IMG/VR virus record: IMGVR_UViG_3300046003_003664
Source: an uncultured virus (IMG/VR IMGVR_UViG_3300046003_003664)
Lineage: Duplodnaviria; Heunggongvirae; Uroviricota; Caudoviricetes
Strand: one strand, 5' to 3'
DNA: 20,000 nucleotides
Position numbers and translations under genes: made by a program. The first letter of the stretch is position 1. The number at the start of each line of letters is the position of its first letter. The notes under the pieces were generated by a model that saw nothing but the letters and a program-made list of their open reading frames with translations, ran no database searches and was not told where the DNA came from. Below are positions 3,414 to 19,381 of the stretch, piece after piece.

Positions 3414-4259
3414 ATGAAAAAGTTAAGAATGGCTATTGTGGGGCACGGGTTTGTCGGTGCAGCAGTAGATTATGGGTTTCCGAATGGTAACTGTAATAAA
3501 ACAATCATTGATCCGAAATATGGAACTCAAGTCTCTGATTTAATGGAATCTGATGTTGAAGTGTCATTTGTTTGTGTTCCAACTCCGATGGGGCAAGATG
3601 CAAGCATTGATGCTTCAATTCTAGTTTCTACTGTAACTGATTTGCTTGCATACACGTCTGGTATGATTGTGATTAAATCAACAGTCATTCCGAGTATTGT
3701 CGGTGAACTTGCAAAAGATCCAAGAGTCATTTACAATCCAGAATTTTTGACCGAAAAGTCTGCAAATGAAGATTTTGTCAATCCGATCATGCACGTGTTC
3801 GGTGGAGATTCTGAACAAACAGAAAAACTTGAAAAGATCTACACTAGATATAGTGCATGTAAACCATGTGCTGTTTACCACATGACCGCCGAAGAAGCAA
3901 GTTTTGTCAAATATGGTATGAATTCATTTTTAATGACAAAGGTATTATTTTTCAACCAACTTTTTGATTTAATTGAAAAGAACGGTTCTAATTTTAGTAT
4001 TATACAAAAGGCAATCACTACGGATCCTAGGATAGGCAGTTCACATACTATGGTACCTGGACATGACGGTCGCAAAGGTGCCGCGGGGGCATGTTTTGCA
4101 AAAGACGGACCTGCATTTGTTATGTATGCAAAAAAAGAAAAAAACCACTTTACTATATTAGAAGAAGTTATAAGAACAAATCAAAAATATAGAAATTCTT
4201 ATGGTGAGCCTCTACCAAGAGAGAAAGAACAACATATTAATTTCAATTATGATATCTGA
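3414..4259 (+). CDS. ugd: UDP-glucose/GDP-mannose dehydrogenase family protein (short form lacking the usual C-terminal domain)
   Basis: IVGHGFVG, VCVPTP, IKSTVIP, YNPEFL, VKYGMNSFL, DPRIG, GAAGACFAKD (catalytic Cys motif). Confidence 0.9.
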   Translation: MKKLRMAIVGHGFVGAAVDYGFPNGNCNKTIIDPKYGTQVSDLMESDVEVSFVCVPTPMGQDASIDASILVSTVTDLLAYTSGMIVIKSTVIPSIVGELAKDPRVIYNPEFLTEKSANEDFVNPIMHVFGGDSEQTEKLEKIYTRYSACKPCAVYHMTAEEASFVKYGMNSFLMTKVLFFNQLFDLIEKNGSNFSIIQKAITTDPRIGSSHTMVPGHDGRKGAAGACFAKDGPAFVMYAKKEKNHFTILEEVIRTNQKYRNSYGEPLPREKEQHINFNYDI

Positions 4260-5281
4260 TCTTTCGCAATTACGGAAAAACCTATTTCTCTATAGGTTTT
4301 TCCCACTATATTATTAAAAAAATTAGTTTGCAAGAAAATACTATTCCTATAAACTCTCAATGATATTTTTCTATCACATTTTATGCACCATGTTTTCATT
4401 TTTTCACGAGAAATACCCATATCTATTAAACTTGATGCAGAATCAAATATTCCTATGGGTGTTGAATAAAAATACTTATGTTTATGATGATTTATCCCAG
4501 ACATTTTTTCGGAAATTTTATCTTTAGTTTCATTTGATACTATTTTTCCTTTCTGTGATTTAGACATTTTTTCTCTAGTTTCATCAGACCTTTTTAGACC
4601 AAGTTGCCCCTTTCCTATATTTTCTTTATGAGTTTCCGAAAGTAATCTGCCTGTTAATGCTTTCCTAACTTTTTCTGTGTGCTCACTGCTTTTCTTTTTA
4701 CCTCGTAAACCAGAGGATATATTATTTTTATGAGCTGTTGTTTTGCGTACTCCTTTACTTGTATTTGAAATTTTGTGTTTATGATCATCCTTTAATGATA
4801 TACCTTTTAAAATTGGAATATAATTGCCGTTTAGATAATTGTGATCGTCTATATTTGATTTAAAATATATCTCTGGATTATTTTTGTCATATACAACAAC
4901 TTTATTTTTGTTTCTTTTAGAAATATTTGTTACTGCTTCTACTCTAAGTTTATCGTAAATTCTGGAGTTCATAAATGTTTTTCTCCTGCATTTCATACCC
5001 CATATTGCATCTACACAAGAATAACTTTTTGGATAAGCTTTCCAAAGTAATAAGTGTGCAATAAAATGTTGGCGATGTGTTAAAAATGCTTTATTCCAAG
5101 GATAAATTAAAAATGATTTATATTCTGGAAACATGTCATTTGCTTTCGGGCAAATATGGTGTTTTTCAATATTACCATTATAATTAGTATTTTTAAGTTG
5201 ACATTTTTGAATAAATGTTATATACTTATTCAAATAATGTGAATTGTGCGGCTTACTTGCCAAAATGGAATAAATATCCAT
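4247..5281 (-). mobile_element. Free-standing HNH homing endonuclease with NUMOD3-type DNA-binding repeats
   Basis: EKHHICPK...N...LTHRQHFIAHLLL nuclease motif, followed by repeated basic units (HKHKISNTSKG, HKNNISSGLRG, SEHTEKVRKALTG, SETHKENIGKG, SDETREKMSKSQKG, SNETKDKISEKMSG). Antisense to its neighbours, very AT-rich, AAGGA RBS. Confidence 0.88.
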
Positions 5282-14235: not shown

Positions 14236-16576
14236 ACATAGCAGATCCGAAACTTAATTCGGAATCGGAATTCGACATGTTATTAATGTATGTCGGACCG
14301 CCAACATATGTTGCAGCTCTAGCATCAGTAGGAGCATATGTAGGTGCATTTATGCTAGCAGCTGCTTGTGCAGAAGCCGCCGTTCTTCTTTCAATTTCTG
14401 CTTCAAGTCTAGCACTTCGTTCCTGTTCTTGTTGTATTCTTGTACTAGTTTCTCTAATCGCGCCGTCCATCGGGATATTGCCTTGAGCACCTGTTAAATT
14501 AGATTCGGCAGTTGCCGATGCAGCACTCTGCTGCACATTTGGATTTACATTTGATTTTCCTAATACAAAGTTTACCTTTGCTATTGCATCAGCCATCTCA
14601 TCTAATTGAAGTGATGGGTTTAATAAACCTTTTGGAAAATTAATATCTTCTCCCCACCAACTGCCAGACCCTTCTACAGGACCGCCGTGGGCCAGCGCAT
14701 CCAAGAATGGAATTGCTCTACCTAAATCTATAGCTAATTGTTTAAAATCAAGATTAATTCCACTAATTTTAATATCTGCAAATTTACTTAAAGCAGACGT
14801 AATTTTTTCTAATGCTTCTCCGCCTTTTACCAAGCCATCCGCATTATCAGCAATTTTCATAATTTGATCAAATGCACTTTCGCCAGTAAAAAATGCAATA
14901 ATTGCTGCCCCAGCTTGCCCCAAACCACTAATTATAGAACCAACACCAAATGCTGCCAAGCCAGCAGAAACGGAAATTAGACCAGCACCAAGTCCTACTA
15001 AATCAATACCATCCAGTTCTTTTGCGGCGGCGACACCTTGGAACACATTAGTAAATAGTGCTTTTAATCCAGCACCTGGTTCACCACCAGTTCCCATTGC
15101 TATTAATTGAGTAATACCATCACCGACTGCAAGTGCTGACATAAAACCTGCTATACCAACACCAATTAAAGGTAGACCTACAGCTATGGTTGCCCCTCCG
15201 ACACCGGTCGCTGCGACTGCCATCAGTACACCAAGTGCTGTCATAGCTTCTGTACTTAACGATAAAATTATGTCATTAAACATTTTAAACGCAGAAACTA
15301 AACCTTCGCCACTTCCTGAAGGTATTCCATCAAGCCATGATAAGCCCTTATCTGCTAGAACAAGCCCACCCAAGAATCCTGCAATACCAGCACTAATACC
15401 AAACATATTTTTTGCAATAGTTGCAGGATTGATAGTAAATTTAGATGCAATACCTAGTAATCCTCCAAGTATAGCAACACTTTCTACAGAAAGACCTGTC
15501 ACAGAATCATTAAACAATTTAAATGCGCCATTTAAATCAGAACCATCTGTTCCAGATATTCCTGTAATCCAATCAAGACCTATATCTGTTAAAACAAGAC
15601 CACCTAAAAAGCCTGCAATACCAGCGCTAACTCCAAACATATTTTTGGCAGTCCTTTTTGGATCTGCATCAAATTTAGTTGCAACTGCTGCTAAACCACC
15701 CAGCACTAATAAACTTTCAGGTGAAAGACTTCCTACTGAATCACTGAACATTTTAAATACCGTGCTTAGACCAGAACCATCTGCCCCAGATATTCCTGTA
15801 ATCCAATCAAGACCTATATCTGTTAAAACAAGACCACCTAAAAAGCCTGCAATACCAGCAGCAACACCTGTCATATTTTTTGCTAAACTTTTTGCATCTC
15901 CGCCGAACGCTTGATTTGCTATAGCTATAGCAGCTACACCAGCAAATAAAGTCACTGCCCCAGTAGTAAGATTACCTATAGCTTCACTAAATGAAGCTAG
16001 CGCGCCGCCGACAGCAGAATAATCATTTCCAACCCAACTTAGTCCAATTTCACCAATAGAAAGACCTACTAAAAATCCACTAATGCCGGCGCCAAGTCCT
16101 GTCATCCCACTTGCAGTACCAAGACCATAAAGATTTTTAAGAGAAGCAGTTCCCGCCGCGATTGCCGCGGCGCCAGCTAATGCAGTCATTGCAGCTGGCG
16201 ATAGATTTTCCATTGCATCACTAAACGACGCAAACGCAGTACTTAGTCCGCTATAATCGTTGCCAAGCCAGTCTAATCCTACACTTCCTATTGAAAGCGC
16301 TGCCATAAATCCTGCTATGCCAGCACCCATACCTATGAGACCCCCGGCTCCGCTAGCAGCAGCACCTATACCAGCACCAACACCCGGCGCAGCTGCTTGA
16401 CCTATAGATTGTCCCTGAGCGGCCTGCGCGGCAGGAGAAACAATATCAGTACCAGTACTAGAAAGACGATCTCTAGTTGCTTGAGCAGTAAGCATATTGA
16501 CCAATAACGTTTTTTGATCAGTCATTGTCTTATCAATAGATTTTAAAACATCCTGGAGATCGTCTAATGTTGCCAT
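14234..16576 (-). CDS. Probable tape measure / baseplate hub protein (gp29-like) with ~78-aa Gly/Ala-rich repeats
   Basis: 780 aa, helical and hydrophobic, six GIAGF-type repeats; lies directly after the gp26 and gp51-like genes in a late tail operon. Confidence 0.65.
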   Translation of the reverse strand: MATLDDLQDVLKSIDKTMTDQKTLLVNMLTAQATRDRLSSTGTDIVSPAAQAAQGQSIGQAAAPGVGAGIGAAASGAGGLIGMGAGIAGFMAALSIGSVGLDWLGNDYSGLSTAFASFSDAMENLSPAAMTALAGAAAIAAGTASLKNLYGLGTASGMTGLGAGISGFLVGLSIGEIGLSWVGNDYSAVGGALASFSEAIGNLTTGAVTLFAGVAAIAIANQAFGGDAKSLAKNMTGVAAGIAGFLGGLVLTDIGLDWITGISGADGSGLSTVFKMFSDSVGSLSPESLLVLGGLAAVATKFDADPKRTAKNMFGVSAGIAGFLGGLVLTDIGLDWITGISGTDGSDLNGAFKLFNDSVTGLSVESVAILGGLLGIASKFTINPATIAKNMFGISAGIAGFLGGLVLADKGLSWLDGIPSGSGEGLVSAFKMFNDIILSLSTEAMTALGVLMAVAATGVGGATIAVGLPLIGVGIAGFMSALAVGDGITQLIAMGTGGEPGAGLKALFTNVFQGVAAAKELDGIDLVGLGAGLISVSAGLAAFGVGSIISGLGQAGAAIIAFFTGESAFDQIMKIADNADGLVKGGEALEKITSALSKFADIKISGINLDFKQLAIDLGRAIPFLDALAHGGPVEGSGSWWGEDINFPKGLLNPSLQLDEMADAIAKVNFVLGKSNVNPNVQQSAASATAESNLTGAQGNIPMDGAIRETSTRIQQEQERSARLEAEIERRTAASAQAAASINAPTYAPTDARAATYVGGPTYINNMSNSDSELSFGSAM
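15552..15859. repeat. 74-bp perfect direct repeat (15552-15625 and 15786-15859), 234-bp period
   Basis: CCAGATATTCCTGTAATCCAATCAAGACCTATATCTGTTAAAACAAGACCACCTAAAAAGCCTGCAATACCAGC occurs twice; it encodes AGIAGFLGGLVLTDIGLDWITGISG. Confidence 0.95.
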
Positions 16577-16762
16577 TTATCTAGTTCTTTCTTTCTCGTT
16601 TTGACTTTGAATATATTCAATTAACATATCAAAATATAAATCTCTTTCATATGGTAATAAATTTTCAATATCAGATATACTATATTTATGGTGTTGAGCC
16701 ATTCCAAATACTTTTTGGTAGTATACAAAAAGATTAGTGTGACTCGTGATTATATAAAAAAA
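16577..16762 (-). CDS. gp51-like baseplate hub assembly segment, absent from the ORF track; probably the -1 frame extension of gp26 (minimal ATG ORF 16577-16702, 41 aa)
   Basis: Reads FFYIITSHTNLFVYYQKVFGMAQHHKYSISDIENLLPYERDLYFDMLIEYIQSQNEKERTR*. QHHKYS..IEN..P.ER..Y is typical of the small ORF that follows gp26 in T4-like phages. Its stop abuts the tape-measure ATG. Confidence 0.8.
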   Translation of the reverse strand, partial: FFYIITSHTNLFVYYQKVFGMAQHHKYSISDIENLLPYERDLYFDMLIEYIQSQNEKERTR

Positions 16763-17451
16763 CTTTGAGTACCTTGTATTGTAAATACCTTATCTTTACC
16801 TTTAGAATTTTTATATGGCATCTCGTGTCTTACTTTTGGCATTGTATCAAAAAATGTCTTAATCTTCTTTATGACATCAGCGTGCAAACTTTCAATAAAT
16901 TCATCAACCTGTTTCTTTGTAAAATCTTTGAAGTTATATACTTCATTTTCTGATGCTAACATGTCAATGCATGAAATTAGAATTTCATAACTTTTCTCTG
17001 GTGATAAATCTTGTTTATCTAAAATTTCTGTAAAATCATCTATAGAAGGATATTTTAGAAAAATTGTATATTTTTCATCTAATGATATTTTATTTGTATG
17101 CTTTTCATCTCTATAGACTTTTACATTTTGAAGATCTAAAGTCAATTTTATTTTTTCTTGTGTATCTGGATCGTCAATTTCAAATTCTACATTATTATCA
17201 ACAGATCTTGATCTGATATTAATAAGTAAATACTCAAGATCAAATAGTGCTAATTTATCTACATCATAATCTTGTATACAATTATTTACAATTTGTTTAA
17301 TTGCCATAATAATCTGTTCTGGATCTTTAGATTGCTGCGCAGTCAAAAGAATTTTTTCTTCTTTGACAGTGAATGGTCTATATTGAACTTTCTTTCCATT
17401 AGAAGGAAGTATTAATTCATAAAGTGGTAACTCAATTTTTGGTAGTGACAT
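16750..17451 (-). CDS. gp26: Baseplate hub assembly protein (T4 gp26-like)
   Basis: MSLPKIELPLYELILPSNGKKVQYRPFTVKEEKILL, FDLEYLLINIRSRSV, LKYPS, FFDTMPK; GGAG RBS. Confidence 0.88.
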   Translation of the reverse strand: MSLPKIELPLYELILPSNGKKVQYRPFTVKEEKILLTAQQSKDPEQIIMAIKQIVNNCIQDYDVDKLALFDLEYLLINIRSRSVDNNVEFEIDDPDTQEKIKLTLDLQNVKVYRDEKHTNKISLDEKYTIFLKYPSIDDFTEILDKQDLSPEKSYEILISCIDMLASENEVYNFKDFTKKQVDEFIESLHADVIKKIKTFFDTMPKVRHEMPYKNSKGKDKVFTIQGTQSFFI

Positions 17452-17464
17452 TTATCTCTCCATG

Positions 17465-18265
17465 TTAAAATAGCCCGCGAAATGTATTAAAGGTATTTTT
17501 TATAGCATTAAAATCATTTCGGACTGTTGTAAAAGTATTTATTGCATCTTGTACTGTTGTTGGTAAGTTTCTTTGTTGGGTATTTTGGCCTCTAAATCCC
17601 ACACTATTTAGTAATTCAAGAGTTCCATTTCCTCTTGATAGATCTGATATTGTAGTACCTGGGTCTGTAGCAGTGAAATCAAACGCGGTGGCATTAAAGG
17701 TTACACCTAATGTTTGGATAGAATCATTAGGAGCCCATGAAAGATTTTTTCCTCCAACTTCTGTTGGAAATACATTAGCAAAATTATAAATATATGTATC
17801 TCCTAATTTGCCATCTGCATTAGTTTTAAAATGATGTATTTCCATTGTACCACAAGCATAGTCTTCCTTATATCCTATTTCATATGGTAGGTGATCCCCG
17901 TTGACCTGTGATAAAGAACCACCATAAATAGTGTTATAATTTATTATCTCTTGCATCCAAGAATGAAAGAATGAAAGTACTCTATGTTCAGAATCTAGCA
18001 TGAACGTGCAATTTATATTAACTGAGGATAAGTTTAGTGGCATTGCTTCAGGTATACCTATTGTATTAGGAGTGTATGATGCAGAATTTATATTCAAAGC
18101 TGGTATTGATACTTCAGAACAAAAGAATCTAAGATCAAATTTATCAATAAAATCAATTTTACGAGTTGGCTTAGACTGTGTTCCAAGTGATACAACAAAT
18201 AAATTTGATTTTGCAGGGCCGCCATACTTATTCATTACTGACTTAAATTCGTTAATATTGAACAT
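17465..18265 (-). CDS. Tail-tube-fold baseplate protein (gp54-like tail tube initiator / gp19 homolog)
   Basis: GGPAKSNLFVV, FCSEVSIP, FFHSWMQEI, YNFANVFPTEVG..LSW, LGVTF; position between gp2 and gp26. Confidence 0.7.
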   Translation of the reverse strand: MFNINEFKSVMNKYGGPAKSNLFVVSLGTQSKPTRKIDFIDKFDLRFFCSEVSIPALNINSASYTPNTIGIPEAMPLNLSSVNINCTFMLDSEHRVLSFFHSWMQEIINYNTIYGGSLSQVNGDHLPYEIGYKEDYACGTMEIHHFKTNADGKLGDTYIYNFANVFPTEVGGKNLSWAPNDSIQTLGVTFNATAFDFTATDPGTTISDLSRGNGTLELLNSVGFRGQNTQQRNLPTTVQDAINTFTTVRNDFNAIKNTFNTFRGLF

Positions 18266-19350: not shown

Positions 19351-19358
19351 TATAAATA
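19351..19358 (+). promoter_or_regulatory. T4-type late promoter for gp48
   Basis: Exact TATAAATA upstream of GTG 19394. Confidence 0.85.
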
Positions 19359-19373
19359 GGTTAAACTCAATTG

Positions 19374-19381
19374 TATTTATA
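19374..19381 (-). promoter_or_regulatory. T4-type late promoter for the gp4-gp2-gp54-gp26-tape measure operon
   Basis: TATTTATA on + is TATAAATA on -. Confidence 0.85.

Follow-up and report, generated by a model that had tools for sequence, protein, structure and literature searches.

The genes encoding tail assembly chaperones in T4-like phages were reportedly identified by Vladimirov, Gautam and Davidson (Virology 2022) as genes 26 and 51, in what is said to be a bioinformatic assignment. Passages of later papers credit that work with poly-T −1 frameshift signals in "TAC-N genes of T4-like phages" (PMC12846349) and with T4-like phages that have a short gene and a separate, fused long gene (PMC10885494). 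The window analyzed here, a 20,000-nucleotide stretch of DNA from an uncultured virus, adds a further, uncultured T4-like phage to that system. A first-pass annotation of the window implied that a frameshift in a T4-like phage would be new; this was wrong, as the gp26/gp51 frameshift idea was published in 2022 and is already covered by the work that PMC12846349 and PMC10885494 cite. Phage lambda produces gpG and gpGT in a similar way, by −1 frameshifting at a low level close to the 3′ end of a chaperone gene beside the tape measure gene; the tape measure protein is bound by the G part and the major tail protein by the T part, at about 30:1, according to passages of a 2016 review that still lists T4 as an exception to the conserved tail-gene −1 frameshift (PMC5009743). 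T4 gp26 and gp51 themselves appear as hub assembly chaperones in another source (PMC3004832).

The locus in the window has the following parts:

16750..17451, minus strand: gp26-like gene, putative short tail assembly chaperone (TAC-N, the G equivalent), 233 aa; based on PF12322, phrog_150, and the fold model
16756..16762, minus strand: slippery heptamer U UUU UUU, formed by the last base of Ser230 and by Phe231 and Phe232; based on sequence and conservation
16577..16762, minus strand: −1 frame without a start of its own, putative gp51-like C-terminal domain (TAC-C, the T equivalent); based on phrog_634, the alignment with T4 gp51, and invariant residues
14234..16576, minus strand: probable tape measure gene, 780 aa, directly after the −1-frame stop; based on repeats and position

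On the minus strand, the 3′ end of the gp26 gene reads AGT TTT TTT ATA TAA, the seven T's being the A7 at 16756-16762. An open −1 frame extends from 16789 to 16577 (70 aa from stop to stop; 61 aa counted from the heptamer). It has a stop ten codons 5′ of the heptamer, and its first ATG, GTG, or TTG is the ATG at 16702, which lacks a usable Shine-Dalgarno (SD) sequence (duplex of −0.4 kcal/mol, compared with −6.4 kcal/mol for the gp26 start). The TAA of the −1 frame (16579-16577) adjoins the ATG at 16576 of the 780-aa open reading frame (ORF), and a slipped ribosome would produce a fusion of 230 + 61 = 291 aa. On all of this the first-pass annotation was accurate: its coordinates and lengths for a gp26 end with T TTT TTT one codon before the stop are correct, and the 61-codon −1 frame running up to the ATG of the next gene, the upstream stop, and the lack of a start before 16702 and of an SD at that position are borne out.

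A T7 run is by itself not rare in the window, which has eight runs of at least seven A or T at 36% GC; what stands above chance is the conservation of this one. Contigs of three out of four further sequencing runs bridge it without a gap or another letter, and those of the fourth break beside it. Since three of the four bridge it unchanged, the T run is not an assembly error. Nor is it a terminator tail, because no terminator-like site was found in 16400-17600. Sigma-70-like sites occur at chance level, and an Rfam search gave only a chance match, below the gathering score. All 24 of the listed datasets with this DNA are lake water metagenomes; no RNA dataset is among those listed for this stretch, and the list is uninformative on expression.

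The 233-aa ORF is gp26, as indicated by its matches to PF12322 (E value, 1e-59; 202 bits with a cutoff of 24.5) and phrog_150 (E value, 1.5e-63). An AlphaFold2 model of gp26, made from 42 sequences (pLDDT, 84), was aligned to 48,161 solved chains. The top three were 3FGX (Z, 7.4; rmsd, 3.6; 84 aligned residues), 2OB9 (Z, 7.3; rmsd, 3.8; 83 residues), and 3KLU (Z, 6.4; rmsd, 3.9; 84 residues), all of which are named as tail assembly chaperones in passages of PMC9603447; 2OB9 is the tail assembly chaperone of HK97 (gp13). The fourth chain is an uncharacterized protein (Z, 5.1), and the rest score 3.6 or less. A Z score below 8 is in the range where a match may reflect a common arrangement; despite this, the appearance of three members of the chaperone family at the top is a specific result for the model. 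The predicted N-terminal fold shared with HK97 gp13 and its kin spans residues about 1-90 of 233, and the remaining about 140 residues have no clear structural match. By these residues beyond the chaperone fold, and by the contractile T4-type tail, the system described here differs from that of lambda. A Foldseek search of the PDB with the gp26 model gave no match (best E value, 0.15), and none of gp26, the −1 frame, and the 780-aa protein has a family in NCBIfam.

The −1 frame matches phrog_634 ("baseplate hub assembly catalyst," gp51-like) with an E value of 3.3e-19 over residues 9-68 of its 70 aa, that is, from the two Phe residues on, and also matches the last 48 positions of phrog_150 (E value, 0.0013). 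T4 gp51 (249 aa) matches phrog_150 over residues 3-248 and phrog_634 over residues 147-246, and for T4 gp26 (208 aa) the match to phrog_150 is confined to the N-terminal 235 positions of the profile. Judged by these profiles, T4 gp51 consists of a gp26-like body and the C-terminal domain found here as the −1 frame, i.e., it is the fused form of the window pair. We draw this link from PHROG profiles; direct comparisons are weak: from the Phe pair on, the −1 frame can be aligned with residues 200-244 of T4 gp51 at 22% identity (E value, 7e-4), hhalign gives the two a probability of 15%, and window gp26 shows no significant similarity to T4 gp51, also when the gp26 alignment is compared with the single gp51 sequence by hhalign. 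Window gp26 and T4 gp26 match with an E value of 1e-7. The two proteins belong to the same family (phrog_150). T4 (NC_000866) has two divergently transcribed genes with no heptamer at the end of gene 26, where Phe-Phe is still kept, whereas the window has one gene and a −1 frame. The first-pass proposal that the 233-aa gp26 and a 291-aa fusion are the equivalents of G and GT gains support from the chaperone-fold model and from the fused T4 gp51.

For conservation analysis, the best 80 of 577 viral stretches encoding a gp26 relative were taken. The gp26 stop is reached in 79 of these loci; L007 ends before it and was left out. The representative set comprises 35 relatives with less than 80% identity to each other, and loci cut downstream were left out of the counts that need that part (n = 34, 33, or 48). 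In addition, 16 named phages with 24-44% identity were picked for spread from 562 phage records.

Our analysis shows that the heptamer is conserved. It is T7 in 77, T6C in 2, and GT6 in 1 of the 80 sequences formed by the 79 loci that reach the stop and the window; among the 35 representatives, the corresponding numbers are 33, 1, and 1, so that all 35 are slippery. Phe231 is encoded by TTT in all 35 and Phe232 in 34, and the base before the Phe pair is T in 34, across AGT, ACT, and TCT codons. Elsewhere in the gp26 genes of the representatives, 76% of the Phe codons are TTT (327/428), and at nine other conserved Phe columns only 18-29 of 32-35 sequences use TTT. As the Phe codons and the preceding T are fixed at synonymous sites, it is the DNA, not the protein, that is under selection. 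The layout is kept in 79/79 loci that reach the gp26 stop. In the more distant named phages, T7 (5 phages) or T6C (10 phages) is present in 15 of 16, and the −1 frame is open for 161-188 nt beyond the gp26 stop in all 16. Conservation of the slippery heptamer and of the −1 frame relation had been suggested as checks, and both are found. The sixteenth phage, Cygsa01, has C ATT TTC instead of the slippery heptamer.

Despite this C ATT TTC, the −1 frame of Pseudomonas phage Cygsa01 (L094) is open, and an ATG stands right after its gp26 stop. A single-tRNA slip or a switch to coupled initiation is possible at this junction.

Downstream of the slip site, the −1 frame is 57-62 codons long in 47 of 48 complete junctions; the other one (L075) has 88 codons and was left out of the −1-frame protein alignment. 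In the complete junctions, the third frame runs for only 6-32 codons, and upstream the −1 frame meets a stop after 0-20 codons. Residues L11, Y15, and F19 of the −1 frame are invariant in the 42 aligned sequences, and H8 and Y14 are nearly so. All of these lie before the internal Met (Met21), where residue conservation was to be looked for according to the first-pass annotation. The codon-position entropy before Met21 is 0.73/0.63/1.32, i.e., variation is mostly at third positions, and therefore the coding pattern extends upstream of Met21.

These data bear on the alternative that the gp51-like frame is a separate small gene, translated by coupled reinitiation after the gp26 stop (at an ATG, a GTG, or a near-cognate codon) or from the ATG at 16702. 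In its favor, GenBank records annotate a gp51 of its own in S-PM2, phiM12, Cr30, P-SSM5, and others, and 17 of 35 relatives have ATG as the codon that follows the gp26 stop. However, this codon is GTG in 4 and a non-start codon in 14 relatives and is ATC in the window, Met21 is replaced by Leu in 10 of 34 representatives, and an SD of −4 kcal/mol or better exists in 0/34 cases at Met21 and in 2/35 at the codon after the gp26 stop. Because Met21 is not kept, the post-stop codon is variable, and an SD is lacking, separate initiation cannot be the conserved route. The annotated starts disagree with each other (57 aa in S-PM2, 45 aa in HTVC008M, and 43 aa in Syn1), and four records annotate no gp51 at all. 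In the 15 annotated records examined, gp26 and gp51 are nowhere joined; these records have a short, separate "gp51" with inconsistent starts or none. Moreover, a separate gene leaves both the fixation of the heptamer at synonymous sites and the fused T4 gp51 unexplained. We regard it as highly improbable, while separate initiation may add to a frameshift in those relatives, about half, that have an ATG after the gp26 stop.

Two candidate stimulators of the proposed −1 frameshift flank the heptamer:

16696..16745, minus strand: predicted 3′ hairpin, candidate stimulator; based on −14.5 kcal/mol, a z score of −3.56, and covariation
16771..16775, minus strand: weak SD-like element AAGGU, candidate 5′ stimulator; based on anti-SD pairing

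The 76 nt 3′ of the heptamer are predicted to fold as one long hairpin (0/200 shuffles), in whose outer stem two bases of the internal AUG (16702) are paired. For the 60 nt after the gp26 stop, z is below −2 in 30 of 34 representatives (mean, −3.6); in a subset of 17, thirteen other windows along the locus average −1.2 to +0.5, in contrast to −3.4 at the hairpin. RNAalifold predicts eight pairs, four of them with double changes. A 12-pair helix, read from the alignment used for RNAalifold, has 28 double-change cells versus 12.3 in shuffles (0/500) and shows 86% pairing, compared with 25-51% when it is slid; the number of its pairs with a double change is not significant (55/500 shuffles). One pair of the helix is U-A in 13 sequences, C-G in 13, and U-G in 4, and its changes are synonymous on both sides (Leu TTG/CTG with Gln CAA/CAG). 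The protein tree shows C-G in one main clade and, apart from it, in L010 and L048, which implies at least three changes (the tree was read by eye). The window sequence is mismatched at this covarying pair. Only 5 of the 16 named phages have a strong downstream fold (z below −2.5), and theirs is a different helix; the hairpin is therefore a feature of the clade.

The SD-like AAGGU lies 8-9 nt before the heptamer and is weak in the window (−3.9 kcal/mol). In the 35 relatives, anti-SD pairing just before the heptamer averages −5.9 kcal/mol, versus −0.7 kcal/mol across the gene, and the Gly codon at this site is GGA in 23/35 cases, compared with 21/131 Gly codons elsewhere; the element overlaps the invariant Gly227, with which it is confounded. 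Upstream of the heptamer, no conserved structure was found (mean z, −0.66). A second anti-SD peak is seen in the 35 representatives about 30 nt 5′ of the heptamer (window about 16791-16805; mean, −4.3 kcal/mol). The −1 frameshift cassettes of Escherichia coli dnaX and of IS elements likewise have an SD-like element upstream and a stem-loop downstream of the heptamer, the former 9-14 nt from the slip site according to passages of the 2016 review (PMC5009743); in the window, the spacing is about 8-9 nt, the element is weak, and both stimulators are candidates. A more far-reaching reading, which we put forward tentatively and consider somewhat doubtful as a whole, is that, in addition to the published slip site, the clade carries a full three-part recoding cassette of bacterial type (SD-like element, U7, and a long-loop hairpin maintained through compensatory changes at synonymous sites) that sets the chaperone ratio and masks the internal AUG, and that gp26 is a true lambda-G-fold chaperone whose about 140 extra residues are adapted to baseplate hub assembly.

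Because of the heptamer, the residue conservation before Met21, the fusion in T4 gp51, the modeled fold, the hairpin, and the SD-like element, a programmed −1 frameshift yielding chaperones of 233 aa and 291 aa is very likely. Most ribosomes would read gp26 to its stop and produce the 233-aa short chaperone. On U UUU UUU, with two tRNA-Phe bound, a smaller share would slip back by one base, run through the gp26 stop, and continue into the gp51-like domain; the resulting long form would have 291 aa and finish immediately before the tape measure start. The hairpin, 6-10 nt downstream, and the upstream SD-like element probably make the ribosome stall and thereby determine the ratio of the two forms; the hairpin would also cover the internal AUG. 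On the model of lambda G/GT, the tape measure protein might be coated by many short copies, and a few long copies might recruit the tube-fold subunit or the hub, so that binding would be divided between the short-form and C-terminal parts as in lambda. Since T4 gp26 and gp51 are listed as hub assembly chaperones, the partner of the C-terminal domain could be the hub or a tube-initiator protein. The analysis shows the layout, its conservation, the coding constraint before Met21, the correspondence to T4 gp26 and gp51, a predicted chaperone fold, and covariation in the hairpin; from these we infer that slippage takes place, how often it does so, what the two stimulators do, and which proteins are bound. 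The slip site of lambda contains Lys, whereas U UUU UUU in the window would be read by tRNA-Phe; passages of the review describe U UUU UUU as a comparatively weak shifter in E. coli (PMC5009743).

The long form could also result from transcriptional slippage, in which RNA polymerase adds one U in the T run and translation is normal. A one-base insertion gives the same frame, and the run is a homopolymeric T7 in 33 of 35 close relatives. However, efficient slippage of bacterial polymerase is described for runs of nine A or T in passages of PMC5009743, and T6C, which shortens the run and keeps tRNA-Phe re-pairing, is common (10 of 16 named phages); for these two reasons transcriptional slippage is disfavored. 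In addition, the codon phase of the run is kept in all cases, and the SD-like element and the hairpin are placed where ribosomal stimulators act. We think this route very unlikely to be the source of the long form. Least credible of all is that the T run is an assembly artifact or a by-product of Phe-Phe in an AT-rich genome and that the −1 frame is not reached from gp26: the base composition and the eight long A or T runs of the window would suit it, as would the Phe-Phe kept in T4 gp26 without a heptamer, but other conserved Phe columns use TTC freely, the conservation at synonymous sites refutes it, most further runs bridge the site unchanged, and the layout is kept in every locus that reaches the stop.

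The −1 frameshift signal of the window is real and very probably functional, and it is another example of a known arrangement, here correctly rediscovered, with a correction to annotation as a result. The fold match, the SD-like element, and the covarying hairpin may be additions to the 2022 paper, provided that they are absent from it. The hairpin and the chaperone-fold match tie the "hub assembly" proteins gp26 and gp51 of T4 to the lambda G/GT scheme.

Upstream of the gp26/−1-frame pair are the following features:

17465..18265, minus strand: gene for a tail-tube-fold protein (gp54-like), directly upstream of gp26; based on PF23849 and phrog_45
19374..19381, minus strand: match to the consensus of T4-type late promoters, upstream of the run gp4 - gp2 - tube - gp26 - tape measure; based on motif match

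A PHROG search identified gp4, gp2, and the tube-fold gene upstream of gp26, and a tube-fold homolog is found at this place in 51/51 distinct loci; it is gp54-like, and identity with the major tube protein is not implied. No obvious sheath or major tube gene was seen in a rough ORF listing, made without profiles, of the 59.6-kb contig. The T4-type late promoter motif has five matches in the window, with 2.6 expected, and a late promoter upstream of the gene run is suggestive only. Two such motifs lie on opposite strands at 19351-19381, between the divergent gp4 and gp48 genes.

The 780-aa gene had been called the tape measure gene. Its position and repeats fit this, and a family match to back the name was not obtained: searches of Pfam, PHROG, and NCBIfam gave none, nor did tblastn against 50,697 phage records. 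The protein contains 31% Ala plus Gly and has repeats of 77-78 residues, with Trp at 103, 181, 258, 336, and 414. It is a feature look-alike of PF25671 (T4_Tape_measure) at 0.90, which is a lead only, and the quality of its Atlas model (pTM, 0.24) does not allow a comparison. The gene is probably that of the tape measure, judged solely by where it lies and by its repeats. Six copies of a motif can be discerned in the protein at intervals of 77-78 residues, which are also the intervals between the Trp residues. In L100 (1344-3534), a copy of the gene that is otherwise identical is missing about 149 nt and has a frame that ends at 151 aa; this deletion is probably an assembly error in the repeats.

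Some relatives (L059, L060, L062, and L072) have a short ORF after the gp51-like frame, which is 92 aa long in three of them and cut off in L059. Likewise, phiM12, Cr30, HTVC008M, and DLP6 have a short ORF before the long gene. Such an ORF is absent from most relatives and from the window. Elsewhere in the window, a 344-aa ORF (4247-5281, minus strand) lies on the strand opposite to that of its neighbors and has Lys/His-rich repeats; by eye, it looks like a homing endonuclease.
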